NCBI GenBank assembly: GCA_964417675.1
Contig: CAYQJL010000282.1
Coordinates: 148,794 to 212,793 of the forward strand
Length of the DNA stretch: 64,000 nucleotides
Reading direction: 5' to 3'
Source of the DNA: an uncultured bacterium
GTDB lineage: Bacteria > Eisenbacteria > RBG-16-71-46 > CAIMUX01 > WJJG01
The translations under genes were made by a program, and so were the position numbers. Under the pieces are notes generated by a model. That model searched no databases and was not told where the DNA came from. It worked only from the letters and a program-made list of their open reading frames with translations. This document shows positions 12,075-63,383 of the stretch, one piece after another (the stretch's first letter is position 1; each line of letters begins with the position of its first letter).

Positions 12075-12164
12075 GCCGATCCTGTTCCCGCGGGGGATCG
12101 TCCCTCCGATCCTGTTCCCGCGGGATCGGCCCGTGGATCCTGTTCCCCGGGAGATCGCCCCACG
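12075..12164. repeat. 30-bp x3 tandem repeat with internal dyad symmetry (REP-like) between the nucleotidyltransferase and metK
   Basis: Three tandem units ccgatcctgttcccgcgggggatcgtccct, ccgatcctgttcccgcgggatcggcccgtg and gatcctgttccccgggagatcgccccacgg. Each contains GATCC...CCCGCGGG...GGATC palindromic arms. Confidence 0.6.
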
Positions 12165-12257
12165 GCTTGGACCGGAGGACCCTGCCGGATCAAACCGCTT
12201 GCGTCCCGGCCCTCGCCCGGACCATCCCCTGCGAGAGAAGCGCAGGGATCCGGCGGG

Positions 12258-13262
12258 CTACGGCCCGCTGTTCAGGACGACCTCGGAGGAGTCGCCCACA
12301 TTGAGTCTCTGGAAGGTGCCCCGGACAATGGCGCTCTCCCCGATCACGGAACGCTCGAGCAACATGTCCTCCACGAGGGCACTCTCATTGACAATCGTAT
12401 CCCGCACGATGGCGCGCCGAATGACGGCTCCGTCGGCCACAGACACGTTGGGACCGAGGATCGACTTCTCGATCCGGGCCGTCGGCGCGATGAAGACCGG
12501 CGGCACCAGGGTCACACCGGGGATGGGCGCCGGCTGCGGAACCATACGCAGGAGATGCTGATTCGTATCAAGCAGCGTTTCGGGTTTGCCGCAGTCGAAC
12601 CAGCCGTCCACGGTCGACACTCGCATAGGCATGCCATTCTCCAGGAGGCGCTGCAGGGCATCGGTCAGCTGGAATTCCCCCTTCGTCCGCCGGTTCTCCT
12701 CGATCAGGACATTCAGGCTCGCAAACAGCGGCGCCGCATCCGGGAAGTAGTACAGTCCTACGATGGCCAGATTGCTGGGCGGATCCTGAGGCTTCTCCAC
12801 CAGGCGCAACACCTTCTCGCCCTGAACCTCCACGACGCCGAACCGGCGCGGATCCTCGACCTCCTTCACGCCGATGACCGCCTCCGCGCCGCTCAGGTAG
12901 GCGTCCCAATCCGGTTCCACGATCGTATCCCCCAACACGATCAAGATGGGGCCGGATCGCACCTGCTTCTCGGTCACGGCGATCGCATGTCCCAGGCCAA
13001 GGCGCTCTGTCTGTTCCACGACCTCGATCTGATCGCCATAGCGTTCGCGCAGATACTCCCGAATGCGCTGCCCCATGTAGCCCACCACCACGACGATCCG
13101 CTCTACACCGCGGTCGCGCAGTGCATCCAGAATGTGCCCCAGAATGGGTTTGCCGGCCACATTCACCAGGGCCTTCGGTACGGTGTGGGTCTGTGGGCGC
13201 AGGCGCGTGCCCACGCCTGCGGCGGGCACGATGGCTGTGGGTCGGGTCTGGGCCTCCGGCAT
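12258..13262 (-). CDS. sugar-phosphate nucleotidyltransferase (NTP_transferase domain plus C-terminal left-handed beta-helix hexapeptide repeats)
   Basis: The ORF-track entry 12258..13868 is fused through ptsI. The real start MPEAQTRPTAIVPAAGVGTRLRP is the ATG at 13262, which forms an ATGA overlap with the ptsI stop (verified). It carries the G-x-G-T-R-L nucleotidyltransferase motif and a C-terminal hexapeptide-repeat region. Confidence 0.85.
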   Translation of the reverse strand: MPEAQTRPTAIVPAAGVGTRLRPQTHTVPKALVNVAGKPILGHILDALRDRGVERIVVVVGYMGQRIREYLRERYGDQIEVVEQTERLGLGHAIAVTEKQVRSGPILIVLGDTIVEPDWDAYLSGAEAVIGVKEVEDPRRFGVVEVQGEKVLRLVEKPQDPPSNLAIVGLYYFPDAAPLFASLNVLIEENRRTKGEFQLTDALQRLLENGMPMRVSTVDGWFDCGKPETLLDTNQHLLRMVPQPAPIPGVTLVPPVFIAPTARIEKSILGPNVSVADGAVIRRAIVRDTIVNESALVEDMLLERSVIGESAIVRGTFQRLNVGDSSEVVLNSGP

Positions 13263-15118: not shown

Positions 15119-15181
15119 ACCGAACCTTTCCTTTCGCGGCTAGCGCCCTGCACCACCTGCCAGTCTCATCCCAGCCGCACG

Positions 15182-15282
15182 TCCCATCCCGGTCGCACGC
15201 GGGCCGCATGCCCGCCGCACATCCGTCCCCCATGCCCGCCGCACGTTCGGCCCATCCTGGTCGCACGCGGGCCGCATGCCCG
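15182..15282. repeat. 34-bp direct repeat, 2 copies 33 nt apart, in the ptsH-ptsI spacer
   Basis: cccatcccggtcgcacgcgggccgcatgcccgcc at 15182-15215 and cccatcctggtcgcacgcgggccgcatgcccgcc at 15249-15282. Confidence 0.55.
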
Positions 15283-15369
15283 CCAACTGCCTGCCCGGGT
15301 GTGGTGCCACACAGGCCGGCTGCGGGGCGTGGGACGGCCATACTGTGTGGCATGTTCACCCGCGACTAC

Positions 15370-15789: not shown

Positions 15790-17640
15790 TCATTGCCAGG
15801 GTGTCAGGCCCAGTGCCAATACGAGCGCACACGCCCAACCCCACAAAAGGGCCCGCCCTCCAACGAGCAGGCCCAAGGGAAGGCCCAGGATAAACCAAAC
15901 CAGCCCATGCCGGAAGAACGACATGACCCCTGATTCTGTTCCCACGGCAAACGGACCCAAATGCCTGGCGAGCACCAAACCGACCCACAGAGCCAGGAGC
16001 GGAATCAGCAACGCCAGCGCCGTTGGCAACCAATCCCACACCCAACCACGCCCCCCTCGAACGCAGTCCCACCCCTTGCGCCAGCCCCAGCGGTAGAGAC
16101 CCCACCGCATCACGACATGAAACAGCAGGCTGGCGCCCACATAGATAAGGAGTCCCAGCCAGGGACGAAGAACCGGAAGAACCGTCAGGCCCAACACCAT
16201 GAGGCTCAGAACAGGGCGCACGCCGCCCCACAGAACGCGGTCACCCCACTGGGCCAGCACCGCACCGCCCACCGTCAGCAAGCGGGCCGGGGCCCGCGGA
16301 AGCGAGCCCCGACCCGCCTCGGTCAGGACACGCTCGATGCCACCCGCCAGGGCCGCGGCCAATACGGGCTGAGTGTTGTACGTTCCCGTCTGGGCAATGT
16401 CAAACTCGGTCTGGCTGCGAATGGCTTCCGCGCCCCGCAAGCGCTCCTCAGGAATGGCGCGCACGATCCCAAGGAAGCCAGCCCGCTGAAGGTAGGCGAA
16501 GTTGAACGATGCCTGCAAGAGCAGGAAGGCCCGCCATTGGCGAAGCCGTGGGAACGGTGCGCCCGGGCTTCCAGAATGCACCTGGAACGTCTCCCCGCCG
16601 GGCGGCTTGCCCAGCGCGCCTGCCTTGCCAGTTACGGAACTTGCTGCGCCTGGGGCCGTTGCCCCGTCCCCGGACCGGCCTCGCTGCCAGCGATGCTTCA
16701 GTCGCTTGACTTCGATTCCCAGGCCCAGGGCCCGCTGCCCGAGCACGCCGCCCAAGGCGAACAGCAGAAGGGCACCTAGCGGCGCCCCCCGCAACCCGCC
16801 GTGCAAATCCACCTGTCCCAAGCCGGCCAGGCCCCACCAGGTCTCTGCTGCCCCGATGCGGGATTCGAATCCCAAGGCAAGGTCACTGACCCACAGCAGA
16901 ATCATGGCAGGCATCAGCACCAGGCTCAGGAGCAGGAGCGGGCCCACCAGGGACGCCTCGATCCCTCCGCTGGCCAGGAGTCCCTCCACCCGCACACCGC
17001 TGGCGCATGTCGCCTCCGCGTACACGACGCGCTCGCGCCGCTCGTTGCGCCGGCGCAACCGATTCTCCGTCCACTCACCGACCGTGGCAGCCAGCAACGC
17101 CAACACCACCGCCACGCTTGCGTCCCAGGGAGTGGCCAGCGGGGAGAGCAAACACAACCAGGCGGTCCCGATCACAGCGGCCGGTCCCACGGCCGGCTGC
17201 CGGGACCCACCCATGGGGAGCAGACCGGGCCAGACCGCCTGAAGAGCGAAGCCCATGCCCAGCCCGGCGAGTGGATTGCCGAGGAGCACTCCGGCCATCG
17301 AAGCGGCCACCAGCGGCTGGTGCAGGAACAGAGGTCCCACTGCGCGTTCGTCCGCGGCCACGAGGGCGGCCCACATCGCGAGAAGCGCCCATCGGAGACC
17401 GCTGCCGAACTCGGCGCACAGTGCATGGAAGGTCACGCCGAATGCTCCACCGGACGCTCCCATTGCCGCGCTGACGACTGTCCCCGCGCACCTCTCGGCG
17501 GACACCCCGGCGGCCACCATCGCCCCCACGGCGATCACCGGGGGGAGCCATGCAAACCGAAGCCCGGTCCCGACAGCCGTCCGGCGGAACCCGGGAGCCG
17601 GTCCAGTGCCCGAGCCATCCGGTACGGTCGCCCCCCCCAC
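15790..17640 (-). CDS. PTS mannose/fructose/sorbose-family fused IIC-IID permease
   Basis: 616-aa polytopic membrane protein. The N-terminal half is IIC-like. The C-terminal half has the IID signature region WRAFLLLQASFNFAYLQRAGFLGIV (compare IID FWRSFFIQASWNYERMQNLGF). Its GTG start lies 9 nt after the GH57 stop. Confidence 0.75.
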   Translation of the reverse strand: MGGATVPDGSGTGPAPGFRRTAVGTGLRFAWLPPVIAVGAMVAAGVSAERCAGTVVSAAMGASGGAFGVTFHALCAEFGSGLRWALLAMWAALVAADERAVGPLFLHQPLVAASMAGVLLGNPLAGLGMGFALQAVWPGLLPMGGSRQPAVGPAAVIGTAWLCLLSPLATPWDASVAVVLALLAATVGEWTENRLRRRNERRERVVYAEATCASGVRVEGLLASGGIEASLVGPLLLLSLVLMPAMILLWVSDLALGFESRIGAAETWWGLAGLGQVDLHGGLRGAPLGALLLFALGGVLGQRALGLGIEVKRLKHRWQRGRSGDGATAPGAASSVTGKAGALGKPPGGETFQVHSGSPGAPFPRLRQWRAFLLLQASFNFAYLQRAGFLGIVRAIPEERLRGAEAIRSQTEFDIAQTGTYNTQPVLAAALAGGIERVLTEAGRGSLPRAPARLLTVGGAVLAQWGDRVLWGGVRPVLSLMVLGLTVLPVLRPWLGLLIYVGASLLFHVVMRWGLYRWGWRKGWDCVRGGRGWVWDWLPTALALLIPLLALWVGLVLARHLGPFAVGTESGVMSFFRHGLVWFILGLPLGLLVGGRALLWGWACALVLALGLTPWQ

Positions 17641-17649
17641 CGGTGCCTC

Positions 17650-20088
17650 CTAGCGCTTCGACTTCACCAAGCGGATCGGCCGCCTGCCTCGGGCCAACTC
17701 TCCCGCGGGCACACGCAAGTCGGGTTGGCCGTCACGCATCTCTGCCCGGTACCCGAACCGGTGCTCCCCACCCGGCACCAGGTGCAGCGGGAAATAGAAG
17801 AGAATCGCCAGCCCCTGATCATTGCTTTCAGCGCCCCCTTCCGACAGGCTCACCGTCCTGACCGGATAGCGGCAATAGGCGGCCGGCGCTGACAGAGAGA
17901 ACTCGATATGCCAGTTGGCCCATCCCTCGACCAGATGCAGGGAGTCCACGGCGGGGGCCTGTCCCACTGCCCCCAGATAGGCTGGCTTCGCACGCTGTCC
18001 GTTTACCACCAGGAAACGGTCATCCGCCTTGGCTGCCAGCAGATTGGCATGGTTCTCGATCGCCGCCCACGCACGCATCTCATGGTCCGACTGATTGCGG
18101 AAACGGTAGTCGACGCTATAGCCCCTTTCTCCAGACTGAACGCTGATCGTCTTCTCAACCTGCAGCGGCTGGCAGTTCCCCCCACGCCATAGCCCCCCGG
18201 TCCGTCGCAGCCGCACCTGGACCCGATCCTTCTCCTCGATCACGTCGGCCTCATACGGCTGGTTGACGAAATCACCGATCTCGTGCTGACTCTGCAGCAT
18301 CTGGCGGACCGGATCCGGTTCCTCATCGAAGAATCGATCGGTGAGCGCGGCCCGATCGTACCAATCATAGGTCAGCAGTTCACGCAGCCCGTCTTCCTTC
18401 GAGGTGATCCCCCCGTGAATGCTCGCGGCCTGTTCCTGGGAGGAATCCACCGCCGCCGCGTTCGGCGTCTCGGGGGCCGCATCGGCGCCCGCCGTGGATC
18501 GGGCCGCGTCCGGCGTCTCAGGGCCCGCGTTGGCGCCCGCCGCGAATCGGACCGCGTCCGGCGTTCCTGGGTCCGCATCGGCGCCCGACGCAGATCCGGC
18601 CGCGTCCGACCCCTCGGGCTCCAGCGAATCGGCCGCCTGCTCGGCGGCACTCCCGGTCACCTTGCGATGGTAGTATTCCTCGCGGCGACTGATCACATTG
18701 ATCAGATTGTAGCCCGCAGAACGGTCATCCCATTCCAGCAAGCGCCCACCGCCATTCGGATCGAGGAACAGCGCAAGCTGATCGTTCTCGAGGACAATCT
18801 CATTGTGGCCGTCGATGTCCAGATCCGCGGCTCGCATCGCCACCCAGGGCTCGCGACCATGCAGCCCGCGGGCCAACAGCGCCTCCCCCCTGATCAGCTC
18901 TGCGTAGACGCCATGGCGCAGATGCGGCAGGTACATTCCGCCGAACACACCGTGCCAGTACGCGCAATTGCATTGCGCCCGCCACAGGTGATCCCGGCAA
19001 TTCTCCCACGCCTCTCGCCGCATCGTGCTGCGGAAGGCGCGGCAGCGCCCGGAGGCCTCGAGCGCGCGCATGTGCATCCAACTGCTCTCCGGATAGCGCG
19101 CGAAGAAGTTTCGCCAGAAGCCACCCCGCACAAACAGGCGCCCCTCATCCTCGAGGCCCGCCTCGGACAGCGTCTCGCGCAGCTGCTCACAGACGGCCTG
19201 ATGATGCGCCGGCAATGACCAGTCGCCCATCTCGGCATAGGATCCGGTGGGCAGATAGGCCAGTCCAACCGGATCCTGTTCGCGCGCCTCCCGCGCGAAG
19301 GTCGTCGGCAGGATCGCGTCACCGGCGGCCTCGAGCGCGCTCAGAAAGCGATCGAGCCATCGCCGTTGGTAGACCAGCTTGTGCGTGCCGGGCCATGTTC
19401 CGAACTTCTCGCCGTCATCAGCATAGACGGCCAGTCCATCCCCACCGCCTGGGAAGGGGTTCCTCAAGAACCGGACCACTTCATCCGGATCCGCGAACGG
19501 AATCCGATAGCGCAAGCTCATCAGCGCCGGGAACAGGCGCAGGCTGCGGCCGGCGCTCTCGGTCAGGAAACTGCCACGAATCCGCTCCGCGCCCACGCCG
19601 ATCTGCTGGAGCTGCGTATCGTCAATCGGCAAGTACGAGATCCCGGCATCCACGAGATCCAGTGGCAAATCCGGTTCCCACACGCGTTCGGTCAGCCAGA
19701 TGCCACGGGCATCGACATCGAAGCGCGAGGTCAGGTACTCCCTCATCTTCTCAACTTGACCGCGCCGGTCCTCCGGCGTCAGCGCCGGCAGGACCGGTTC
19801 GTAGAACCCGCCCCCGAGGATCTCAAGACGGCCGCTTCGAACCGCACCCGCAATGCGATCAAGATACTCGGGATGGTTCTCCTCCAACCATTCCCACAGA
19901 CAACCGGAGTTGTGCAAGACCCACGGGATCGCGGGGTGACGTTCCATCACCTCGAGGAACGGCAGGTACGCCCTTTGATAGGCATCCTCGATCACATGAT
20001 CGAAGTTGCCCACCGGCTGATGATTGTGAACGCAGAAGACAAAACGGATCGGCGCCAATTCGACCTCCTTGTCGCGGACAGTCCCCAC
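17650..20088 (-). CDS. glycoside hydrolase family 57 (alpha-amylase / 4-alpha-glucanotransferase / branching-enzyme type) with C-terminal extension
   Basis: 812 aa with the GH57 conserved regions FVFCVHNHQP, WLTERVW, YADDGEKFGTWP and AQCNCAYWHGVFGG. A 48-bp x3.3 in-frame tandem repeat at 18453-18625 encodes a Pro/Ala/Asp-rich insert. Confidence 0.85.
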   Translation of the reverse strand: MGTVRDKEVELAPIRFVFCVHNHQPVGNFDHVIEDAYQRAYLPFLEVMERHPAIPWVLHNSGCLWEWLEENHPEYLDRIAGAVRSGRLEILGGGFYEPVLPALTPEDRRGQVEKMREYLTSRFDVDARGIWLTERVWEPDLPLDLVDAGISYLPIDDTQLQQIGVGAERIRGSFLTESAGRSLRLFPALMSLRYRIPFADPDEVVRFLRNPFPGGGDGLAVYADDGEKFGTWPGTHKLVYQRRWLDRFLSALEAAGDAILPTTFAREAREQDPVGLAYLPTGSYAEMGDWSLPAHHQAVCEQLRETLSEAGLEDEGRLFVRGGFWRNFFARYPESSWMHMRALEASGRCRAFRSTMRREAWENCRDHLWRAQCNCAYWHGVFGGMYLPHLRHGVYAELIRGEALLARGLHGREPWVAMRAADLDIDGHNEIVLENDQLALFLDPNGGGRLLEWDDRSAGYNLINVISRREEYYHRKVTGSAAEQAADSLEPEGSDAAGSASGADADPGTPDAVRFAAGANAGPETPDAARSTAGADAAPETPNAAAVDSSQEQAASIHGGITSKEDGLRELLTYDWYDRAALTDRFFDEEPDPVRQMLQSQHEIGDFVNQPYEADVIEEKDRVQVRLRRTGGLWRGGNCQPLQVEKTISVQSGERGYSVDYRFRNQSDHEMRAWAAIENHANLLAAKADDRFLVVNGQRAKPAYLGAVGQAPAVDSLHLVEGWANWHIEFSLSAPAAYCRYPVRTVSLSEGGAESNDQGLAILFYFPLHLVPGGEHRFGYRAEMRDGQPDLRVPAGELARGRRPIRLVKSKR

Positions 20089-20189
20089 GGATCACGCGCT
20101 GACCGGACCTGTGGGCCCGGACGGAGCCTTCCCGCCCCTCGTGGCTCGAGTACGAATCGTACAAGTCGAACCACAGATAGCGGACAACA

Positions 20190-20726
20190 TCAAGGCCGGA
20201 GTAATCTTCTCAAACCATCTCCGGCAACCCGCGGCGAACTGGGTAGATCCTGGGCGAACAAGAACAGGCCCCGGTCCAGTAGATCGAGGAGAGATGCTCG
20301 GTCCGTTTCGGTAAGGTGAAGGTAGGAGATGTACTCGATTGTACCCGGTCGATCATGAAGCCCGCCGAGGTTGACGCCACCTCCCGGCCGGAATCCGGCG
20401 TCATACAGCCGCGCAAGTGTATCCACACTCCGCAACAAGACGATCACCCGGCTGGCCTCCGTCCGTGCCGCCCCGGCCGCTGCCGACAGGAACTCCGCAA
20501 CCGCCTCGATGCCCACCGACACCTCCGGAGGGGCCGCCGAGAGGAAGGCCTCCCGCTCCCAGTCATCGCCCGCAACTTCATCATCCACAATCAGGTACCC
20601 GCGCGGATCGAGCGCCTGCGCCCATCCATAGACAACTTGCCCGTGCAACAGGCGGTCATCGACGCGCACCAGCGCAAAGCGGGTCGCTCGATCCCAATGA
20701 CCGGCCGCTTCATCCAAGTTGCACAT
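20190..20726 (-). CDS. PTS mannose-family IIB component
   Basis: FALVRVDDRLLHGQVVYGW matches the IIB-Man phospho-histidine motif (IVLARIDDRLIHGQV). The N-terminal 17 nt overlap the IIA stop, so the true start may lie slightly downstream. Confidence 0.82.
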   Translation of the reverse strand: MCNLDEAAGHWDRATRFALVRVDDRLLHGQVVYGWAQALDPRGYLIVDDEVAGDDWEREAFLSAAPPEVSVGIEAVAEFLSAAAGAARTEASRVIVLLRSVDTLARLYDAGFRPGGGVNLGGLHDRPGTIEYISYLHLTETDRASLLDLLDRGLFLFAQDLPSSPRVAGDGLRRLLRP

Positions 20727-21129
20727 CGTTCCATCCCCGACACTCTATACTCTCGCGGCCCCGCCGGCGCAGGCGTTCGCACAGCTCGGCTCGGGTAACC
20801 CGCGAGCGATGATACAGAAACTCGATCAGCATGGGGAGATTGACGCCGCAGGCCACCAGCAATTCGGGATGTTCCAGGCCGATCCGATGGCAGGCATGAC
20901 CGCAACTCCCCGCTGCCAGATCCACGAAGATCACCGCGGGACTGCCGGGCGGATCGCGGCGCGCCAGGGCCTGGTCAAGGGTCTCCACCAGCGCCCTGTG
21001 AGAGACCCCGAGATTCGACACACACATGAGGTTCTCTTGCGGACCCAGGATCGCCTCGGCGGTCCGCTTGAGTTCCTCCCCCAGCCGGCCATGCGTGACA
21101 AGGACCCCGAGCATGGACGCCCCGCTCAC
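20710..21129 (-). CDS. PTS mannose-family IIA component
   Basis: GVLVTHGRLGEELKRTAEAILGPQEN... and AVIFVDLAAGSCGHA match IIA-Man, with the phospho-His in the GxLVTHG motif. The GTG start overlaps the hprK stop by GTGA, and an alternative ATG lies at 21114. Confidence 0.82.
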   Translation of the reverse strand: MSGASMLGVLVTHGRLGEELKRTAEAILGPQENLMCVSNLGVSHRALVETLDQALARRDPPGSPAVIFVDLAAGSCGHACHRIGLEHPELLVACGVNLPMLIEFLYHRSRVTRAELCERLRRRGRESIECRGWNDVQLG

Positions 21130-22094
21130 TCCTGATCCCCCTCGGCCAGGCGAGACAGCGTACGCTTGCGCCGGATGGTCTCGAGCAGATTCTCACTGAA
21201 GCGGGCTGCCGGATGATATCCATAGGCTTTGACCAGGTAGTTCAGCGCGATCGTCTCGGCGATGACCGTGATGTTCTTTCCCGGGAAGATCGGAATCGCA
21301 ATCAACGGAATCTCGGTGCCAAGAATCGTGGTTCTCTGTTCCTCGATTCCCAGGCGTTCATAGCTCTCGTCGCTGCTCCAATCCCGGAGATTGACTTCGA
21401 CTTCGAGACGCTTGAACGCCCGGATGGCCCGAATCCCGAAGATGCTTTGCACGTCGATCACCCCGATGCCGCGAATCTCCATGCAGTGGCGCAGCAGCTC
21501 GTTGCCCGAGCCAATCAGAATGTTGGGATAGCGGCGCCGAATCGTGACGATATCGTCGGCGACCAGACGGTGCCCACGTTCGACCAGGTCGAGCGCGGTT
21601 TCGCTCTTTCCGATCGCGCTGCGGCCCGTGAAGAGCAGTCCCACACCGTAGACATCGACCAGCGAACCATGCACCCGTGTTCGCGGGGCAAACGCCTCCT
21701 GCAGGAACGCGGTCAGCTCATGCTGAAAGTGCGTGGTATCCATCTCGGTACCCAGAAGGGGCACCTCATTCTGCGAGGCAATCCGGGGCATGTCGGGCGG
21801 CGGATCGAGGCCTTTGGTCACAACGATACAGGGAATCGCGAACCCCATGATCTGGGAGAGGACGGTTCCGCGCCGGTTCTCATCCAAGGTACCAAGGTAG
21901 CGGATCTCAGTCTCGCCAATGATCTGCAGGCGGTCCCAGAGGAAGTTCTCCATGAAGCCGGTCAGCGCCAGCTGCGGACGGTTGATGTCACTCGTAATCA
22001 GGCGGCTGCGGGAGTGAAGGCTCTGGCTGAGCAACCGCAGTCCCAATCGCTCACGGGTCTGTTCAAAGAACTCGGCTACGGTCATTCCGACCAT
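21126..22094 (-). CDS. hprK: HPr kinase/phosphorylase
   Basis: Trimmed to MVGMTVAEFFEQ... It has the P-loop GRSAIGKSETALDLV and the HprK signature region LIGSGNELLRHCMEIRGIGVIDV. Confidence 0.92.
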   Translation of the reverse strand: MVGMTVAEFFEQTRERLGLRLLSQSLHSRSRLITSDINRPQLALTGFMENFLWDRLQIIGETEIRYLGTLDENRRGTVLSQIMGFAIPCIVVTKGLDPPPDMPRIASQNEVPLLGTEMDTTHFQHELTAFLQEAFAPRTRVHGSLVDVYGVGLLFTGRSAIGKSETALDLVERGHRLVADDIVTIRRRYPNILIGSGNELLRHCMEIRGIGVIDVQSIFGIRAIRAFKRLEVEVNLRDWSSDESYERLGIEEQRTTILGTEIPLIAIPIFPGKNITVIAETIALNYLVKAYGYHPAARFSENLLETIRRKRTLSRLAEGDQE

Positions 22095-22297
22095 GTGAAC
22101 CCTCACCCCTCCAGTAGATCCCCTCCACTCCGTTCGGCAACCGCTCTCAGAAACCTCGTCGAACCACGCCGCAGCACCCCGCGCCCTCTTCTTCTCCCGC
22201 TCGCACCCTGAGAGCAAGGGCGCCGGGAGATCGCCGCACCGCACGAGTCAAGCGCCTCGATGACCACGCCGCCTCGATGACCACGCCGCCTCGATGA

Positions 22298-22882
22298 TCA
22301 GGGCGCCTCGATGAGGCAATAATTGCCATCTTCGCGCAAGTGGATCAAGTTGACCTTGTTGGTGCCCTTGTTGCGGAAAAGCAAGAAATCGCGATCGGAT
22401 GCATGCAGCGCCTCGATGGCCGACTCCACCGAGACGGGATCCGGGTGGAAGGAGTCATCCCGCACGACCACCGGCGCGAAATCCTCTTCCGCGAACTCCA
22501 GCCCCAGCTCTTCCTCGGCCGCAGTCGGTTCATCCTCGTCCACCGGCTCCGGAACAGCCGGGATCGTCGGCTGATCCTTGAGGCTGCGTCTGTTTTTCCG
22601 ATCCCGCTGGCGCGCCATGATCCGTTTGATCTGGCGCTCGATCCGGTCCACCACCTTGTCCACCGACGTTGTCATCTCGTCCGACTCACCGCGGCTCACG
22701 ATCTCGGTGCCCCGGGCACGAACAGAAATCTCCGCTATCTGACGGTACTTCTCGGTCGTGAGGACGATGTGCACCTCCTCTTGCTTCCCGAGATAGCGGC
22801 CCAGCCGGTCGAGCCGCTTCTCCAGATAGTCGCGCAGTTCGGGGGTCATGTCGAAATGACGGGCGGTGGTGATGATGTCCAT
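22298..22882 (-). CDS. hpf: ribosome hibernation promoting factor (long form)
   Basis: MDIITTARHFDMTPELRDYLEKRL... is a canonical HPF/RaiA N-domain, followed by a linker and a C-terminal dimerisation domain. A strong SD AAGGAGGAG lies 6 nt before the verified ATG at 22882. Confidence 0.93.
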   Translation of the reverse strand: MDIITTARHFDMTPELRDYLEKRLDRLGRYLGKQEEVHIVLTTEKYRQIAEISVRARGTEIVSRGESDEMTTSVDKVVDRIERQIKRIMARQRDRKNRRSLKDQPTIPAVPEPVDEDEPTAAEEELGLEFAEEDFAPVVVRDDSFHPDPVSVESAIEALHASDRDFLLFRNKGTNKVNLIHLREDGNYCLIEAP

Positions 22883-25184: not shown

Positions 25185-25296
25185 CCGAGAGGATGCTTCC
25201 TGCCCGGATGGCTCCGGATGGGATGCTCCCGGCCGAGTTGGCTCCGGATGGGATGCTTCCGGCCGAGTTGGCTCAACAGACGACTTCTGCACTGGC

Positions 25297-25827: not shown

Positions 25828-25854
25828 CAGGAGGAACCCTCCACGGAGCCCCCC

Positions 25855-26020
25855 CCCGAGAAAAGCCGCCCGACAGAGAGAACCCCCACGGAGAAAACCC
25901 CCACGGAGAAAACCCCCACGAAGAAACCCTCTTCGCAGACACCCTCCATCGAGGGGCCCTCCACGAAGAAACCATCCACGAAGAGGCCCTTCATGAAGGG
26001 GCCCTCTGCAAAGAGGCGTT
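25855..26020. repeat. 15-bp periodic tandem repeat, about 11 units
   Basis: Units are cccccacggagaaaa, ccccacggagaaaac, ccccacgaagaaacc, ... ctccacgaagaaacc, atccacgaagaggcc, cttcatgaaggggcc. It lies between the acyltransferase stop (26166) and the lptC-like signal peptide. If translated on the minus strand it would give (R)GGFL pentapeptide repeats. Confidence 0.75.
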
Positions 26021-26165
26021 TCCCCGAGACAACCTCCCCCGAGATGCCTTAGCCATTTAGGTGCCAAAGCCTTCATACATCCCCGTCCGTTTGCGGCCCT
26101 ACCGTGCCTGTGCGCCTGCTCTCCAGATACACCCTCCCGGGACCGGGCGGTTTCCCGGGCCCTGG

Positions 26166-48871: not shown

Positions 48872-48947
48872 CATCACCTGGGACAAGCGGCATCACCTGG
48901 GACAGGCGGCATCATCTGGGACAGGCGGCATCACCTGGGACAAGCCG
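48872..48947. repeat. 19-bp x4 tandem repeat immediately downstream of the HNH gene
   Basis: catcacctgggacaagcgg, catcacctgggacaggcgg, catcatctgggacaggcgg, catcacctgggacaagccg. A further 16-bp x2.3 repeat gccgccccaggatgat lies at 49064-49104. Confidence 0.8.
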
Positions 48948-52099: not shown

Positions 52100-52613
52100 T
52101 TGAACCTCCTTACAAGATGCACATTGGACATACCTGGGCTTCTGGAGTGGCACGCACCAGAAACCACCAGATGCTCCATGCGGAGGATTGTCACACTCCC
52201 GCTGCGGGTGGGTTCGTCCGCAATCGGACCTGCTCCAATCAGAGATAATTCTAGCACAACAGCGCTGTTCATGCGAATCCGTTTATTGGACACACGGAAG
52301 TTCCTGCCAACCGATGGTTCTTCTCGTCCATTGCAGACCCCTCCCCACGCGACCATCGCCCGTAACAGTATTTATGGCAATGCGTTACAGGACAGCGCCC
52401 CTCGGTCTTGTTTCGCGCTCGCTTCGCGGGGACGAACTCGAAGGCCGAGTGAGGGACACCGATCGAGGCCTCCAGACCCACGACCCAATCCAAGAGACCA
52501 CTTGCCTGCCAGACAATCAGCCGTCATCAGCGATGATCACTTCGATCGGTGCCGCCTTGGCCAGACAGGTTCTCGCATCGTCACCAGCCCTGGGCAGACA
52601 GGTTCTTGCATCG

Positions 52614-53984
52614 TCACCAGCCTTGAGGCACCAATTCGAAGTCGCCGTAACCATTTCGATCCACGAACACGAACCTCCGGCCAAGACGATCGTAGAACCA
52701 CACCTCGAGGGTGCGGCCGTAGTAGCTGTGGCGATCTCGAGTGATCTCGTCCGGAGCCCCATACGTGATGTAGATCTCACCGCGGTCGGTCTGCCAGCCG
52801 GGCCGCATGACACCGAAACTTCGGTTGGCGAAGTTCACACGCTGGATGAATTCCTCTTTGAACTCGTTGACCTCGCTCTCCGGGGTGGGGTCCCGCTTCT
52901 TCCAGAACTCGCGCCAGAGAGCCCACCGTTCCTCTGGAGGGGCGGCGCGCAGGGGATCGATCTCATCGTCATGGGCGATGAGGTTGAGCACATCAATCGA
53001 CTCGCGCAAGAAGCGCGCCAAGGCTTCCGGCGACTCTGCCAGAAGGCTGACCGACGTCTGCGCCTCAAGGGTGTACTCACTCACTCGAGCGTTAACGTCC
53101 AGGAGATAGGCATCCAGCCATAAGTCCGCGACTGGGATCGGCCAGCACAGGGACGACAAGTCTCGTTCGCCACGGACACCCGCTTCTCCCTCTCGGACCA
53201 TTCGTCCGCCAGAGTCGGTAAGCCTCCACCTCAGTTCTATCTCAGGATACTCAAGCCCCTGATGGTACAACTCGGCATACACGCACAGCGTGTCTCTGGG
53301 CTCTGCGAACTCGCGGTGCAGGAGTCCGTCCTGCCGCAGAGACGTCAGACCCGCGGTGTGGCCACACTCCCCGAGCAGTACCTCCGAGAGGAAGGGCCGG
53401 CCAGGGACTCGAATGGGCAGCTTGCCCCCCACGCATACCTGGCCTTCCTGGCCGGAGTTGGGCTCCGAAACCCGCACGCTGAACCCATACCGCCCGGGTG
53501 TCAGCCGGAAGACAATGTCTTTCTCGAAGCGGGCACCCCGGCGGTGAATCTCGCCCCGATCGGGGATCTGTAGGCTCACGGGCCAAAGGTCCCCGGCCAC
53601 CTGACGGTCTTCCTGGAAGGCATGCACGATGATTTCGAATTCGGCCCGATACCCGCTCTCCCCTTTGCGAAAGCAGAGCTCAGTGTAGGGAACCGTCACG
53701 TGAAGCAGCGCACATGTGCTGTCATCCTGAACCGCGGCACTGACCTCAGCGCGGAAGCGGGGACGCTGGAGGTTCTCCGCCCGGGCGGGAGCATCGTGAC
53801 GGCATGGCGCCGCCATGGCGGGCCACGAGAAGCAAGCAGCCGAAGCCAAGCAGGCAGCCCAAACCAGCCCAATTGGCCATGCCGAGCGGCGGAGTCCGCG
53901 GCAACTCGGACGTAAGCTCTGGAGCTCCCCCAGCTGGTTGGAGGCACGCGCCGATGTCCTGGTTCGCCTTGGCATGATGCCCAT
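52614..53984 (-). CDS. GWxTD-domain protein
   Basis: A signal peptide (IGLVWAACLASAAC) and a C-terminal GWQTDRGEIYITYGAPDEI...WFYD core match the GWxTD family as I recall it. Confidence 0.75.
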   Translation of the reverse strand: MGIMPRRTRTSARASNQLGELQSLRPSCRGLRRSAWPIGLVWAACLASAACFSWPAMAAPCRHDAPARAENLQRPRFRAEVSAAVQDDSTCALLHVTVPYTELCFRKGESGYRAEFEIIVHAFQEDRQVAGDLWPVSLQIPDRGEIHRRGARFEKDIVFRLTPGRYGFSVRVSEPNSGQEGQVCVGGKLPIRVPGRPFLSEVLLGECGHTAGLTSLRQDGLLHREFAEPRDTLCVYAELYHQGLEYPEIELRWRLTDSGGRMVREGEAGVRGERDLSSLCWPIPVADLWLDAYLLDVNARVSEYTLEAQTSVSLLAESPEALARFLRESIDVLNLIAHDDEIDPLRAAPPEERWALWREFWKKRDPTPESEVNEFKEEFIQRVNFANRSFGVMRPGWQTDRGEIYITYGAPDEITRDRHSYYGRTLEVWFYDRLGRRFVFVDRNGYGDFELVPQGW

Positions 53985-55252: not shown

Positions 55253-55491
55253 TCGTCGCCTCCTCCTTGAGACTGTGCCTCTGATCCTACGCGGACATGG
55301 CGCAAATGCGCCACCCCGGGGTCAACGATCCGCCGCCCGGGTGGGATGCCACGCTCAGGATGAATCCTAGCCGATGGATGGCTGAAGAGCTAGAACGGCT
55401 AGATGCTCACAATCAACCTCGGCTTTCCGCGTGCCGATCTAAAGGGAGCCGGCGGTTCTGGCTCTCCGTCGGGGGGAAGGAGTACACCAGA

Positions 55492-56883
55492 ATGAAACGC
55501 GTGAGACCCTCGCGCAAGCAGCCACGAACCGCGGCTTCAAGGTCTCGGATCCCACGGTCGCCTGCAGGGACGGCCACACCCTCGAAGCGTCAGAACCTTG
55601 GCACGGAGCAAGCACCTTCCAGGGGCAAGAGAGGCTCAGAGGAGGGAACGCTGTCCAGGGAGCGCAGGCGCGCCGCGGAGCAAGCTCCCGCCAAGACTCC
55701 TTCCCGGAAGCGCACGCCGAAGGAAAGCCAGAAGCCGTCCAGGAAGGTTTCCGGCAAGAGTGGGCCGGCCAAGAGCGGTCGGCCTGCCAGTGGGGTGCCT
55801 GCGGACCACAAGGGGCGTGCCGGCAGCAAGGGCGCTGCACGGCAGGCCGATCGCGCCGGTCGGGCCGGGGACGCCACTTCGCTCTCCCAGAACGCGTCGC
55901 AGCGCAAGCGGGCCGCCAGGAAGGCACGCGGCAGGCGGCAACCGCTAGTCCGACCCGAGACCGAAACACTCCTTCACCTGGAAGACCTCTTGAAGAGCCG
56001 CATTGTCGGCAAGGACGAGGCGATCCAACGCGTGGCCGATTCGATTCGGATCCGCAGAACCAATCTTGACTTCCGACCGCAGCGCCCAGACGGCAGCTTC
56101 CTCTTGGTGGGTCCTCCAGGTGTCGGGAAGTCCGAATTCGCGCATGCCGTGGCCGAAGTTCTGTTGGGAAATGAGAGTCTCGTCGTTGACCTCGACATGG
56201 CAGACTACACCGAGGAAGAGGATGTGGAGGATCTCCTGGTCACGGCCTATCCCGGTGTCGAGGGGCTGCTGGTCGAGGGCGCTCTCACCACGCCGATGCG
56301 CAAGAATCCCCGCTCCGTGATTCTCTTCCACGGCATCGAGCGGGCCCATCCGGCCGTGCTGCGCCTCATGATGCACGTACTCGAACGGGGTGTGATCTCG
56401 GACGCTCAGGGCGAAGTTGTGTTCAACGAAGCCATCGTCTTCGCAACGACGCGCCTGCTGTTCGAAGACGGCGAGGTGGTGCAGCAGATCGGTTTCAAGC
56501 GTTCGACAGCCCCTCACGAGGACAGGGTGCGCAGGATGCTGGAAGATCAGTTCTCACCGGAGTTGGTCAGCGCCTTCAACGAAGTGCTCTTCTTCAAGGC
56601 GCTGACTCCGGAGGATGTCCGTCTCATCGCGCGGTTCAAGGTCAGCACTGTCCTTGAGCGGCTCAAGAAGCAGAAGCGCGGCGTGGTTATCAGCGACCGC
56701 GTATGGGACACATTCATCTGGGAGGACGAGGTCAGAAGGACAGGGGCCCGCTATCTGAATCGGGCTCTTGAGGAACGGTTGTTCACGCCGCTGTCGAAGT
56801 ACCTGCTTGAGCACTCCACTGCCCGGAGCATTCTCGTGGACGTTCGCGATCGCAAGTTGGTGATCCGCCACGACGAGTCATGA
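55492..56883 (+). CDS. standalone ClpA/ClpB D2-like AAA+ domain protein with a degenerate Walker B and a basic N-terminal tail of about 200 aa
   Basis: SD AAGGAG lies 10 nt before the ATG at 55492 (verified). The first roughly 200 residues are K/R/S/P/A-rich low complexity. After that, LEDLLKSRIVGKDEAIQRVADSIRIRR...FLLVGPPGVGKSEFAHAVAEVL (Walker A intact) aligns with the Clp D2 domain. The Walker-B position reads SVILFHGIERAHPAV, where Clp has SVILLDEVEKAHPDV. Confidence 0.8.
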   Translation: MKRVRPSRKQPRTAASRSRIPRSPAGTATPSKRQNLGTEQAPSRGKRGSEEGTLSRERRRAAEQAPAKTPSRKRTPKESQKPSRKVSGKSGPAKSGRPASGVPADHKGRAGSKGAARQADRAGRAGDATSLSQNASQRKRAARKARGRRQPLVRPETETLLHLEDLLKSRIVGKDEAIQRVADSIRIRRTNLDFRPQRPDGSFLLVGPPGVGKSEFAHAVAEVLLGNESLVVDLDMADYTEEEDVEDLLVTAYPGVEGLLVEGALTTPMRKNPRSVILFHGIERAHPAVLRLMMHVLERGVISDAQGEVVFNEAIVFATTRLLFEDGEVVQQIGFKRSTAPHEDRVRRMLEDQFSPELVSAFNEVLFFKALTPEDVRLIARFKVSTVLERLKKQKRGVVISDRVWDTFIWEDEVRRTGARYLNRALEERLFTPLSKYLLEHSTARSILVDVRDRKLVIRHDES

Positions 56884-57005: not shown

Positions 57006-57971
57006 CTAGTCCCGGTCATCGGGTATCCAACCCGCAACCAGTTGTGCGATACCCGCCGCGAACTGCGGGCCGATCTGCTCGGCCATCAGCATCACCTCTT
57101 CGTGTGACAGCGGTCTGGCGGACAGACCCGTACCGAGGTTGGTGATCAGTGAGGCGGCCACTGCATCGACACCGCAGCGAGCCGCCTCCTCGACTTCCAC
57201 AACCGTTGACATACATGCGGCTTGCGCTCCCACGCGCCGCGCCATCTCCACCTCGGCGGCCGTTTCGTAGGCCGGGCCCAGACACCCCATCAGTACCCCG
57301 CGAACCGTCCGGAGGCCCGCCGCGCTGAGCACGCGATAGAATTCTTCCGTGCGACCGGGGTGATAGGGCGTCCCGCGCCCGGCATCAGCCTTGACAATGC
57401 CCTGGAGGGGACCTGCTCCGAGGAGCAGGATGCGAATGTGGTCCTCGACCACCATGATCGTGCCAGGCGTGATGTTGGGATCGAGCGAGCCGGCGGCATT
57501 GGTGAAGATCATCCACCCGGCTCCAAGCGCCGCGGCCAGGCGAACGGCAAAGGTGACATCCGGCCGTTCGTAGCCCTCATAGAAGTGCACCCGGCCCTGG
57601 AACACCAACCCCACATGCTGACCGGAGATCCTGTCGCTCCCTCGCCGGGCCTCGATCTCGCCTGGAGCGTGGCAGCCCGTCACATCCTGGCCGCCGGTGT
57701 CAGCCTCGCTGCCACCGGCACGCAGGGCTCCGTCCGCGCCCGACCCATCCCATCGCACGACTGCCATGCGGCCAGCGTGCCCCGCCACTGTCGATCTCGG
57801 GTATCCCGGTATATCCGCGCCCTGCAGGGTCGTGACCGTGGGCCATGTCTCAAGCAGGCTGCCGAGGCCCGACCCCAGCACGATGCCCCCCACCACCTGT
57901 GCATCCCCTATCGCACGCTGAAGATGCGCGAGGGTTTCTGCGGAAATGCCGAAGCGATCGCCAAGAGTCAT
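57006..57971 (-). CDS. purine nucleoside phosphorylase (PNP/MTAP family)
   Basis: Trimmed to MTLGDRFGISAETLAHLQRAIGD (ATG verified). VLGSGLG phosphate-binding motif, HFYEGY, and a C-terminal MSTVVE..ASLITN region. A Gly/Asp-rich insert sits after the first beta-strands. Confidence 0.85.
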   Translation of the reverse strand: MTLGDRFGISAETLAHLQRAIGDAQVVGGIVLGSGLGSLLETWPTVTTLQGADIPGYPRSTVAGHAGRMAVVRWDGSGADGALRAGGSEADTGGQDVTGCHAPGEIEARRGSDRISGQHVGLVFQGRVHFYEGYERPDVTFAVRLAAALGAGWMIFTNAAGSLDPNITPGTIMVVEDHIRILLLGAGPLQGIVKADAGRGTPYHPGRTEEFYRVLSAAGLRTVRGVLMGCLGPAYETAAEVEMARRVGAQAACMSTVVEVEEAARCGVDAVAASLITNLGTGLSARPLSHEEVMLMAEQIGPQFAAGIAQLVAGWIPDDRD

Positions 57972-58133
57972 GTTCCCACCCGCGTCATCGTTTCCACCCG
58001 CATCGTCGCTCCCACCGGTATTGTCGGTCGTACCGCTCCCATGAACCCGTCTTGCGAAACCCACAGCGGCCATCGAATCCAATCACATTCAACCCAGCAG
58101 CAGCTTCCTCCGTTCCACAAGAGGCCGCGGCGG

Positions 58134-58228
58134 CCGTCCGCCGCATGCGCCCGGGGCGTCCGTCCACCGCATGCGCTCGGGGCGGCCATCCACCGCATGC
58201 GCTCGGGGCGGCCGTCCGCCACGTGGTC
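58134..58228. repeat. about 27-bp x3.5 tandem repeat in the PNP-upstream spacer
   Basis: ccgtccgccgcatgcgcccggggcgt, ccgtccaccgcatgcgctcggggcgg, ccatccaccgcatgcgctcggggcgg, ccgtccgcc. An additional 18-bp x3 repeat (cccacccgcgtcatcgtt...) lies at 57972-58030. Confidence 0.8.
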
Positions 58229-58246: not shown

Positions 58247-59206
58247 TTACTCGACCTTCTCCGGGTCATAGGGACGCCCCACGGCCGCGGGAGCCACCGA
58301 CCGCCCCACCCATAGCACCAAGACGAGCATAGTCAATGCAAACGGCAACATTTGCAGGAGTTGCGTGGGCGCCCCGCTGCCCTGCAGTCGGATCTGCAGC
58401 GTCTCCGCTGCCCCGAACAGCAGGCAGGCGGCCCCCGCTCCCCAGGGGTGCCACTTTCCGACGATCATGGCGGCCAGGGCGATGTACCCACGCCCACCCG
58501 ACATCTGGTCGGTGAATGAGTGCTGGACGAACGCCAGATACGCCCCCCCCAGCCCCCCCAACAACCCACTCGCCAGCACGCCCACCCAGCGAAGCTGGGC
58601 AACCGAGAAACCGGCCGAATGGGCAGCCTCGGGATGCTCCCCCGCGCAGCGCAAGGCGAGCCCGTAGCCGGATCGTTTCAGGAACCAGACGGCACCCATC
58701 AGCAAGCAGATCGTAAGCAAGAAGAGGGGATCGAAGAAGACCTGCACCAACGGCGAGCCGCTGGCCGGCCAGGCGGCCGGGTAGAGGGCGTCCGGACCGG
58801 GAATCCGTGCGGAATTGCTCGCGCTGTTGAACAGCACTCTCAGGCCGGCACGGGTGAAACCGTAGGCGATTATATTGATCGCCAGACCGGACACGATCTG
58901 GTCGGCCTTGCCTGTCACGGTAACCAGGGCATGCAGGGCTGCGGTCGCCAGTCCGCCCGTCATGGCCATCAGGATTCCGATGTAGGGAGATCCGGTGAAA
59001 TGCGTCCCCACAACTGCAAAAAATGCGCCGTTTAGAAGGATTCCTTCAAGTGCGATATTCACCACGCCGGAGCGTTCCGATAGAACGCCACCGGCGGATG
59101 CCAATGCGTACGGAACACTGATCCGCAACACCTGAGCCAGGATCGAGAGCATGACGGCCAGCTCCATCAGGCCCTCCCCCACAGCTGCATCTGCTTCCGG
59201 CGCCAA
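58247..59206 (-). CDS. ABC transporter permease (BMP/nucleoside-type uptake system, second permease)
   Basis: 319-aa polytopic membrane protein of the branched-chain/ribose-like permease superfamily. It overlaps the upstream permease by 40 nt. Confidence 0.82.
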   Translation of the reverse strand: MAPEADAAVGEGLMELAVMLSILAQVLRISVPYALASAGGVLSERSGVVNIALEGILLNGAFFAVVGTHFTGSPYIGILMAMTGGLATAALHALVTVTGKADQIVSGLAINIIAYGFTRAGLRVLFNSASNSARIPGPDALYPAAWPASGSPLVQVFFDPLFLLTICLLMGAVWFLKRSGYGLALRCAGEHPEAAHSAGFSVAQLRWVGVLASGLLGGLGGAYLAFVQHSFTDQMSGGRGYIALAAMIVGKWHPWGAGAACLLFGAAETLQIRLQGSGAPTQLLQMLPFALTMLVLVLWVGRSVAPAAVGRPYDPEKVE

Positions 59207-61843: not shown

Positions 61844-61860
61844 CGTGATTCCGACTCCGG

Positions 61861-62010
61861 CCTCACCGCCAGCTCCAACCATGCCGCCCGCCTCAGCTCA
61901 CCGCCAGCTCCCACCCACGCCGCCCGCCTCAGCTCACCGCCAACTCCAACCACGCCGCCCGCCTCAGCTGACCGCCAACTCCAACCACGCCGCCCGCCTC
62001 AGCTCACTCC
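61861..62010. repeat. about 35-bp x4 tandem repeat between the substrate-binding-protein and ATPase genes
   Basis: cctcagctcaccgccaactccaaccacgccgcccg and variants. It produces overlapping spurious ORFs in the track. Confidence 0.85.
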
Positions 62011-62105: not shown

Positions 62106-63137
62106 TCACTCCTTCGGCACGTCGATCTGGCCCGCGATGATCTCTGCCCTGAGACGATCGAGCGTGGCATTGATCTCGGGGGTGAAATGAGCTTCGTTGC
62201 CCGTGTTCCGAATGAATCCAACCGCGCCCTCCGCGAGCCCCATCACATGTACCCCGCCCTCGAATTCACCCGAATGAACATCTCTAATTTGCTCATATAC
62301 AGTTACATCGACGTTCTTGACCATGCTGGTCATGATCAGACCAGGCGCTTCAGACGCCTGATCTGAATCCACGCCGATCGCCAGCTTCTGCTTCTCTCGC
62401 GCCGCCTCAAACACACCCAATCCGGTCGAGCCGGACGCGTGGAAGATGATATCGGCCCCCTGCTCGTACTGTGAGAGGGCCAACTCCTTCCCCTTCGTCG
62501 GGTTCTTGAACGCCTCGCCGGTGACACCCGCGTAGTTGACCAGGACGCGGCTGTCTGGCCGCACATGCTTAGCGCCGGCCCGAAAGCCGGCCTCGAACTT
62601 GTGAATCAGCGGAATGTCCATCCCGCCGACGAATCCAAGCGTGCCGGTCTGGCTGACCATGGCGGCCAGGGCCCCCACGAGGAATGATCCCTGCTCCTCG
62701 CGGAACTTGATGCCCACCAGGTTGGGGGGTACCGAATCCCCTTCACTCCAGGTGTAATCGATGCAAACGAACCGCTTACTAGGAAAATCGTGGCAGACGG
62801 CACGAATGTCATCACTGAAGAGAAACCCCACTCCGATGATCAGGTCGGCATCACCCTGGGCGAACAGCCGCAGCGCCGCTTCACGCTCCGAACTCTGCAT
62901 GGGCTCGAAGTACTCGAAGCTGATGCCGAACTCCTCACGCGCCCGAAGCAGCCCTGCATACGCCAAGTCATTGAAGGACTTGTCACCAAGCCCGCCGACA
63001 TCGAACACCAAACCCACGTGGAGGGCACCTTTGCTGCCCTGCTGTTTCTCGCCCCCACATCCCGCACAGACCCCCATGATGAGGGCAAGCGCGATCGTCA
63101 TGCCGAGCAGGAGCCCACCGCGCCGGTCGTTGCCCAT
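62106..63137 (-). CDS. BMP-family ABC transporter substrate-binding lipoprotein (nucleoside/purine-binding type)
   Basis: Trimmed to MGNDRRGGLLLGMTIALALIMGVCAGCGG, a signal peptide with Cys. VGLVFDVGGLGDKSFND and GSTGLGVFEAA are typical of the BMP/PnrA family. Confidence 0.82.
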   Translation of the reverse strand: MGNDRRGGLLLGMTIALALIMGVCAGCGGEKQQGSKGALHVGLVFDVGGLGDKSFNDLAYAGLLRAREEFGISFEYFEPMQSSEREAALRLFAQGDADLIIGVGFLFSDDIRAVCHDFPSKRFVCIDYTWSEGDSVPPNLVGIKFREEQGSFLVGALAAMVSQTGTLGFVGGMDIPLIHKFEAGFRAGAKHVRPDSRVLVNYAGVTGEAFKNPTKGKELALSQYEQGADIIFHASGSTGLGVFEAAREKQKLAIGVDSDQASEAPGLIMTSMVKNVDVTVYEQIRDVHSGEFEGGVHVMGLAEGAVGFIRNTGNEAHFTPEINATLDRLRAEIIAGQIDVPKE

Positions 63138-63317
63138 CGCATGGTCCGCTCCGTCACTCACCCGGACGAGCATGGTCCCTCCGTTCCTACGTACGGCCCC
63201 CAAACTCTTGAGACGCCACTTCATGAAAGCCCTCCAGAACGATGCCCTCTAAACACGTAGGGCAAAGGATTCCGGCGTCATCCCGGTCGTGGCTGCCTCT
63301 GCACAGTCTGCACAGCG

Positions 63318-63383
63318 CATCACCCGGTTGCCGCATCCCCATCACCCGGTTCCCGCATCCCCATCACCCGGTTGCCGCATCCC
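63318..63383. repeat. 22-bp x3 tandem repeat between tdk and the substrate-binding-protein gene
   Basis: catcacccggttgccgcatccc, catcacccggttcccgcatccc, catcacccggttgccgcatccc. Confidence 0.85.

Follow-up and report, generated by a model that had tools for sequence, protein, structure and literature searches.

Dense, lineage-specific tandem minisatellites in a chromosome segment of an uncultured Eisenbacteria bacterium

Overview of the tandem arrays

We analyzed a 64-kb chromosome segment of an uncultured Eisenbacteria bacterium (contig CAYQJL010000282.1, positions 148,794 to 212,793; the whole stretch is called the window below, and all positions refer to it), which holds numerous short tandem arrays both between and within genes. 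The arrays are best explained, with a probability of about 0.75, as independent young minisatellites that arose by tandem duplication in place, are specific to this lineage, were kept where they are tolerated, and share no function. As a set, they look like mutational by-products and not like a new functional element. They meet the usual description of bacterial variable-number tandem repeats (VNTRs) or minisatellites, with head-to-tail units of 10–100 bp, whole-unit copy variation and local origin. The elements are thus of a known kind; the unusual features are the density, the limitation to units of 15–51 bp and the contrast with syntenic relatives. A literature search found no report of tandem repeats in Eisenbacteria.

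Density of the arrays

Arrays were called with Tandem Repeats Finder (TRF) at periods of at least 10 bp; those scoring at least 80 are termed strong, and a weaker cut was set at a score of at least 50. The window contains 25 arrays above the weaker cut, 20 of them strong, with periods of 15–51 bp and 2–11 copies, covering 3.2% of its length. Dinucleotide-shuffled sequences (n = 20) gave 0–2 arrays at the weaker cut and no strong array. The density of strong arrays is 3.1 per 10 kb, compared with 0.15 in the control loci (the surroundings of rpoN in more than 70 other genomes, 1.24 Mb in total) and 0.19 in the 56 control loci with a GC content above 60%. Some 23 arrays exceed 30 bp at a match level of 80% or more, which corresponds to about 360 per Mb; under similar TRF criteria, the counts were 70–102 per Mb in the repeat-rich Burkholderia pseudomallei, 37 in Yersinia pestis and 12.6 in Bacillus anthracis (PMC1853098), an approximate comparison, as the TRF parameters are comparable but not identical. 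An initial annotation, made from the sequence alone, had called the density unusual for a bacterial chromosome, and these figures agree. All 13 arrays that it listed were recovered by TRF at near-identical coordinates, periods and copy numbers, and about ten further arrays had escaped it (at 2104, 5375, 18455, 22253, 25191, 28213, 30977, 37462, 47957, and 51040).

With permissive settings, repeats were detected in 19 of the 32 spacers of at least 40 nt, and 30% of the intergenic bases lie in repeats, compared with 5% in shuffled spacers; roughly one third of the intergenic DNA is young tandem repeat. Repeats with units of 1–9 bp are not enriched relative to relatives. Mismatch-repair-type instability was therefore rejected, as the limitation of the excess to larger units argues against a defect of that type. 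The size-specific excess points to the handling of larger loops or flaps, or to different selection on such repeats.

Comparison with syntenic relatives

Two related lineages, found through RpoN (55–56% identity), have the identical order of 21 genes from rng to metK and the same GC content (0.65) as the window. Across this span, TRF detected eight arrays here versus 0–1 in the relatives. The span measures 22.38 kb versus 20.41 kb, and is thus 1.97 kb (9.7%) longer, while its positive spacers sum to approximately 2.2–2.3 kb versus 0.9 kb according to the database gene calls, so that the core-operon spacers are about 2.4 times those of the sister lineages. Neighbouring genes that overlap in the relatives do not do so here, insertions having separated even translationally coupled pairs. 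The kdsA stop and the kpsF start overlap (TGATG) in the relatives and lie 192 nt apart here, including a 23-bp array (28213–28279, 2.9 copies) that begins at the kdsA stop codon. The spacer upstream of metK is 347 nt long, compared with 129–168 nt in the relatives, and carries an array of 28–30 bp units (12071–12161, 3.1 copies) about 160 nt upstream of the gene. The ptsH-ptsI spacer is 251 nt long, compared with 55–56 nt, and holds a complex nested array (15163–15295) with sub-repeats of 16–24 nt. Within the latter, two 37-nt copies (15180–15216 and 15248–15284) are 95% identical and 68 nt apart; the initial annotation had described a spaced pair at 15182–15282, correctly as a pair, with a unit of 34 bp that is to be replaced by these 37-nt copies inside the nested array.

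Comparison of the encoded proteins revealed that the excess length in KdsB, GH57 and EIIC/D corresponds exactly to the array-bearing segments. KdsB has 301 aa here versus 260–261 aa in the relatives, and its extra C-terminal tail (AAGQHEA)n, absent from the relatives, is encoded by a 21-bp array (30977–31047, minus strand, 3.4 copies). The GH57 protein has 802 aa versus 730–738 aa, owing to a 66-aa linker insertion that the relatives lack and of which an in-frame 48-bp array (18455–18608, minus strand, 3.2 copies) forms part, and EIIC/D has 627 aa versus 559–564 aa. In a third Eisenbacteria genome, GCA_017999265.1, which shares the gene order from thrS through mreB to pyrG, only weak repeats occur where the window holds eight arrays. 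The accumulation of arrays is specific to the lineage. Protein searches returned no RpoN relative between 59% and 100% identity, so that the array burst can be dated only coarsely, and the species-representative genomes contained no close genome (best RpoN match 49%).

Copy-number differences between assemblies

The window is 99.6–100% identical to the JGI metagenome contig MLSed_10000029 (sample 3300001533) and to the Logan assemblies of the sequencing runs SRR2989655 and SRR1179191; the lineage was seen only in this sample and these two runs, and the databases contain no close relatives of it. The JGI contig stops at about window position 55286, and the window represents another, longer assembly with its own haplotype at five repeat loci. 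An exact-match query with the protein encoded at 55297–56883 gave no hit. Comparison of the window with the JGI contig over 52 kb revealed two clean single-nucleotide polymorphisms and five repeat-mediated insertions/deletions (indels) of 15, 24, 33, 42 and 48 bp. The 15-bp array between lpxL and lptC (25850–26017, about 11 copies, with higher-order periods of 30 and 45 bp) has one unit (15 bp) more in the window than in the JGI contig and the SRR1179191 assembly. The window is 24 bp shorter in the PBP2 array (37462–37551, minus strand, 24 bp, 3.8 copies), which encodes (VSPDLGRG)n in the C-terminal tail and has one extra unit in the JGI contig, and 42 bp (2 × 21 bp) shorter in the KdsB array, where the JGI contig has two extra units. 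Outside the window, the JGI contig and SRR1179191 are one unit apart in a 32-bp array. The comparison of copy number, suggested by the initial annotation, thus yielded whole-unit differences of 15, 24, 42 and 32 bp between assemblies, the exact copy numbers being short-read values.

The remaining two indels are in-frame and of the ABA/ABABA form, which is known from slippage and from mutants in flap processing (PMC5677150). The 33-bp indel (16588–16607, minus strand) lies in the linker of the fused EIIC/EIID protein of the phosphotransferase system (PTS), between 16-nt direct repeats GCCGCCCGGCGGG(A/G)AG, and the extra copy is present in the JGI and Logan contigs and absent from the window. 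The 48-bp indel (9690–9723, minus strand) lies in an ftsK linker, flanked by 12-bp direct repeats GCCCGA(C/A)TTGGC, and the window has this segment whereas the JGI contig lacks it. Lying between repeats of 12–16 nt, neither indel is likely to be an artefact.

Stutter or mis-joined repeats in a metagenome-assembled genome would account for short-read contigs that stop within arrays, such as the Logan contig ending inside the 51-bp array downstream of thrS (46441–46624, 3.6 copies, 95% match), and for the differing copy numbers. Such an artefact is nevertheless extremely improbable, because the window, the JGI contig and the Logan assemblies of the two other runs agree in the internal substitutions of the arrays, the coding arrays preserve the reading frame, and relatives assembled by similar methods have no arrays. 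The recurrence of the same arrays in these assemblies bears out the view of the initial annotation that they are not assembly stutter.

Origin and independence of the units

Analysis of the array at the end of hpf (22253–22314, minus strand, 17 bp, 3.6 copies), which includes the stop codon and continues downstream, indicated where its units came from. On the gene strand, unit 1 (TC ATC GAG GCG CCC TGA) is the last 17 nt of hpf, and the protein end that it encodes, LIEAP-stop, is identical in relatives. The later units are TCATCGAGGCGGCGTGG; units 2–4 lie downstream, with TGA changed to TGG. As these units copy a conserved gene end, the array is a tandem duplication of the end of hpf itself, with copies left beyond the stop codon. 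The LptB array (25191–25274, minus strand, in-frame, 30 bp, 2.8 copies) lies in the N-terminal tail of the protein, where the array peptide EPTRPEASHP aligns with a single SPEPARESAS in the relatives. The LptB start (ATG at 25313) overlaps the lptC stop by 17 nt, as in relatives, and the 30-bp array between lptC and lptB is coding and not intergenic. In the kdsA array, the stop-codon region CCTGACC is repeated in every unit. Local origin was observed for the hpf and lptB arrays, and for at most two to three arrays in all.

The initial annotation had stated that the units differ in sequence, and a unit-versus-unit comparison of all arrays agreed with this, giving a best score of 12 within the shuffled range of 9.5–15.5. 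A motif shared among units, including the 'catcac' starts, was no better than in shuffled units and was rejected. A common hairpin or terminator potential was rejected as well (mean fold z of +0.32, with 0 of 25 arrays below −1.64), and an Rfam scan of the whole window at gathering thresholds gave no match. The arrays are not a CRISPR (clustered regularly interspaced short palindromic repeats) array, as the copies abut head to tail with no spacers between them.

These results bear on the possibility that the arrays belong to a dispersed or mobile repeat family, resembling mycobacterial interspersed repetitive units (MIRUs), repetitive extragenic palindromes (REPs), bacterial interspersed mosaic elements (BIMEs) or miniature inverted-repeat transposable elements (MITEs), or that they are binding-site, hairpin or terminator arrays with a shared function. 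Many arrays do lie between operon genes, as MIRUs do, and a few units are dyad-symmetric, namely those of the metK-upstream array and the 15-bp units upstream of lptC. However, the absence of unit similarity beyond chance, of excess folding energy and of an Rfam match, together with the two arrays that copy adjacent conserved coding sequence, makes such a family highly improbable. Membership in the MIRU, REP, BIME or MITE class was rejected, as the units of different loci are unrelated and show no excess folding energy of the kind that imperfect palindromes or terminal inverted repeats would give.

Coding arrays and the reading frame

The initial annotation had placed the arrays in intergenic spacers, but nine of them are coding. 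They include the GH57, LptB, KdsB and PBP2 arrays described above, an array in the polA linker between the 5′-nuclease and 3′–5′ exonuclease domains as delimited by Pfam (2104–2163, minus strand, 30 bp, 2.0 copies), one within a gene for a 357-aa hypothetical protein (5375–5433, minus strand, 18 bp, 3.3 copies), one inside the HNH endonuclease gene (47957–48055, plus strand, 45 bp, 2.2 copies), and one toward the C terminus of a GT4 glycosyltransferase, past the Pfam domain (51040–51102, plus strand, 18 bp, 3.5 copies). All are in-frame. The coding arrays occupy linkers or tails that relatives lack. The period is a multiple of three in all eight strong in-gene arrays (chance of about 1.5e-4), and the same is true of both polymorphic coding indels (33 and 48 bp), whereas clearly intergenic arrays have periods of any length.

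This frame filter bears on a suggestion of the initial annotation that the arrays are contingency or phase-variation loci, in which a change of copy number switches or tunes the expression of the adjacent gene. Copy numbers do vary between assemblies, several arrays lie directly upstream of start codons, and a homopolymer of 10 nt (12053–12062; C10 on the plus strand, G10 in gene sense) stands beside the metK-upstream array, about 140 nt upstream of metK. The suggestion nevertheless appears quite unlikely. The in-gene arrays never shift the frame, and the neighbours are core housekeeping genes (polA, metK, ptsI, hpf, lptB/C, kdsA/B, pbp2, and thrS) in clade-conserved operons that work without arrays in relatives. 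Furthermore, periods of 15–51 bp are ill-suited to spacing switches between the −10 and −35 elements, and microsatellites are not enriched.

Arrays also affect the prediction of open reading frames (ORFs). The initial annotation had attributed most of the spurious long ORFs to the arrays, a share not borne out by the count, in which 31 of the 96 spurious ORFs of at least 150 aa touch an array. In eight real genes, the longest ORF is stretched 5′ through an array, and gene callers are misled, placing starts through arrays and inflating ORFs. Databases disagree on gene starts because frames stay open through the arrays, with conflicts at 24438–25313, 25297–26202, 27075–28262 and 57006–58082. LptB, for example, is given a length of either 248 or 291 aa, the latter being favoured when the protein is aligned with its relatives. 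For KpsF, PNP and LptC, the longest ORF is probably too long. Our gene set combined database gene calls with a codon log-likelihood model, which replaced gene calling based only on the GC content of third codon positions, a signal that proved too weak.

Comparison with known repeat systems

The closest similarity is to the VNTRs of B. pseudomallei, which are likewise head-to-tail, mostly intergenic, of triplet-multiple period within genes, variable from strain to strain and ascribed to slipped-strand mispairing (PMC1853098). In contrast, the density here is roughly 4–5 times higher under comparable, not identical, criteria, the units measure 15–51 bp and not mostly 6–9 bp, and no unit is shared within the window, whereas 36% of the B. 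pseudomallei arrays have copies elsewhere in the genome (PMC1853098). The excess here is also absent from the syntenic DNA of relatives. Like the MIRU-VNTRs of Mycobacterium tuberculosis (see also PMC12817950), the arrays are minisatellite-sized, lie between operon genes, sometimes overlap the flanking stop or start codon, and vary in copy number. They differ in that each array has its own unit, derived from adjacent sequence. The mycobacterial elements, by contrast, reportedly fall into a few families of related sequence that are scattered across the genome (Supply et al.).

In the contingency loci of Neisseria and Haemophilus, units of 1–7 bp throw surface and restriction-modification genes out of frame or alter the spacing of their promoters. 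The arrays described here resemble these loci as hypermutable repeat tracts in or near genes, but have units of 15–51 bp, remain in-frame within genes and lie beside housekeeping genes. Assignment to this class was rejected, as neither a frame shift by the strong in-gene arrays nor an association with surface, virulence or restriction-modification genes was found.

Yeast deficient in the flap endonuclease rad27/FEN1 offers a further parallel, by analogy only: tens of bp are inserted where short direct repeats flank a segment (ABA becomes ABABA), minisatellites expand, and the changes are biased to insertion (PMC5677150). The 33- and 48-bp indels of the present lineage have exactly this ABA/ABABA form. 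However, the yeast strain is a eukaryotic laboratory mutant, rad27 also destabilizes simple sequence repeats, which are not enriched here, and the bacterial counterpart, the PolA 5′ nuclease, keeps its acidic motifs here.

Possible mechanism and cause of the accumulation

In the mechanism that we propose, 15–51 bp of the bacterium's own sequence would have been tandemly duplicated in place, separately at each locus. We infer that slippage was the molecular route; replication slippage or template switching between short direct repeats is the likely form, and further slippage inside an array would expand or contract it. Purifying selection may then remove arrays except at tolerated positions, namely spacers, segments spanning stop or start codons, disordered protein tails and interdomain linkers, and copy number still changes in the population. 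Replication slippage had also been suggested by the initial annotation, and is supported by the copy-number differences, the two indels flanked by direct repeats and the locally derived units. Identity between copies ranges from 75% to 100% within arrays, and several arrays have higher-order periods (15/30/45 or 10/20/30); this combination is the expected outcome of repeated rounds of duplication and decay.

As the main cause of the accumulation, a raised duplication rate and weak selection against small insertions each appear doubtful when taken singly. Under the former, which we put forward tentatively, the lineage would be a natural 'minisatellite mutator', in which a heritable change of replication or repair, affecting the handling of large loops or flaps, raised the birth rate of 15–50 bp duplications. 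Candidates are the loss of single-strand exonucleases, of a helicase or of a large-loop repair activity. Bacterial genomes are normally kept compact through deletion bias. If the mutator existed, this bias would have been reversed, with core-operon spacers grown about 2.4-fold and microsatellites unaffected. If a change of replication or repair is the cause, comparison with the array-free relatives could reveal a factor controlling tandem-duplication rates in bacteria.

For the particular repair background that the initial annotation had raised as a possibility, the only relevant gene in the window is polA. Alignment of PolA with Taq polymerase revealed a complete 5′-nuclease domain with the motifs ..vDG.., ..fD.., ..EADD.., ..DkD.. 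and ..GDssDn.., the acidic residues of which presumably have the roles generally ascribed to them in the PolA 5′ nuclease. With these motifs conserved, a defective PolA flap nuclease was rejected as the cause.

The alternative combines an ordinary duplication rate with relaxed selection: replication and repair would be unchanged, and slightly deleterious insertions would drift to fixation in a small effective population. We regard this as possible rather than probable. The splitting of overlapping, translationally coupled pairs such as kdsA/kpsF and the addition of tails to essential proteins both look mildly deleterious, and a lineage known only from one JGI sample and two runs, with no close database relatives, would be consistent with it. 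However, the 64 kb show no other decay, with intact genes and no recognized insertion-sequence elements, and the in-frame filter is still strict. Confinement of the excess to units of at least 15 bp suggests a specific mutational input and not a general loss of constraint.

Several points weigh against the interpretation of the arrays as independent, locally born minisatellites without shared function. The DNA examined comes from one genome and amounts to about 74 kb, the distance to the nearest relatives leaves the timing of the burst coarse, and local ancestry of the units was demonstrated for only two to three arrays. All assemblies are short-read, and copy number may be misestimated in arrays longer than the assembler k-mer. 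Existing arrays are expected to change copy number, so that polymorphism is no proof of a raised birth rate. Single arrays could also have gained a function, for example the dyad-symmetric array upstream of metK (fold z of −1.55).

In practical terms, the arrays break short-read assemblies and provide ready-made strain markers for the population.

Remaining arrays and gene setting of the window

The window (64.4% GC) is an ordinary bacterial chromosome segment, with most genes on the minus strand and a negative GC skew along its entire length. Its genes include polA, ftsK, metK, a mannose-type PTS cluster with hprK, hpf, rpoN, lptB/C, lpxL, kpsF, kdsA, pyrG, kdsB, rng, lgt, rodA, pbp2, mreBCD, thrS, pfk and an ABC transporter. 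Matches to named proteins group the window with Candidatus Eisenbacteria, at 88–91% identity for MreB and 44–49% for RpoN.

The other arrays lie mostly in spacers. A 33-bp array (4681–4761, 2.5 copies, 75% match) is located upstream of bamD/yfiO, and another (52554–52630, 2.3 copies) at or upstream of the start of a gene with a GWxTD domain. The spacer upstream of the PNP/UDP phosphorylase gene holds two arrays: an 18-bp array (57967–58016, 2.8 copies) inside a spurious 5′ ORF extension, and a 26-bp array (58125–58217, 3.6 copies) that the initial annotation had recognized at 58134–58228, but with a period of 27 bp. A 35-bp array (61862–62007, 4.1 copies) separates the Bmp substrate-binding gene from the ABC ATPase gene, and a 22-bp array (63318–63384, 3.0 copies) lies between tdk and the Bmp gene. 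Beyond the window, another 10 kb from this genome contain two further strong arrays (32 bp, 2.4 copies, and 19 bp, 5.1 copies), flanking a peptide-chain release factor gene (locus L099, 13624–13699 and 14815–14911). G/C homopolymers of 9–10 nt occur beside the metK-upstream array, at the edge of the 15-bp array (25849–25857) and in the PBP2/RodA overlap region (37373–37381), while homopolymer density overall is about that of the relatives.

The arrays with the highest identity in the window flank the HNH gene (region 46334–49254). Besides the 51-bp array downstream of thrS, the arrays around this gene comprise a nested 10/20/30-bp array of CTCCCGCGCA-like units (46719–46800) between thrS and the HNH gene, a 19-bp array (48872–48945, 3.9 copies) 29 nt downstream of the gene, and a perfect 16-bp array (49062–49104, 2.4 copies). 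The HNH protein itself (544 aa, 47208–48842) has a C-terminal HNH endonuclease domain and atypical codon usage, and is encoded downstream of thrS. Since the syntenic locus of GCA_017999265.1 has no such gene next to thrS, the HNH gene is probably a recent insertion.

ARAGORN predicted a tRNA-Pro(CGG) at 58375–58451, on the same strand as and within an ABC permease gene that encodes a full Pfam domain. The prediction is probably a false positive, and Rfam gave no tRNA at this position even at E ≤ 1. The gene cluster rpoN-hpf-hprK-EIIA(Man)-EIIB-GH57-fused EIIC/EIID-ptsH-ptsI (15790–22882) is conserved in the window and in the two related lineages, and the location of a GH57 glycoside hydrolase gene inside a mannose-type PTS operon beside rpoN is an unusual arrangement.

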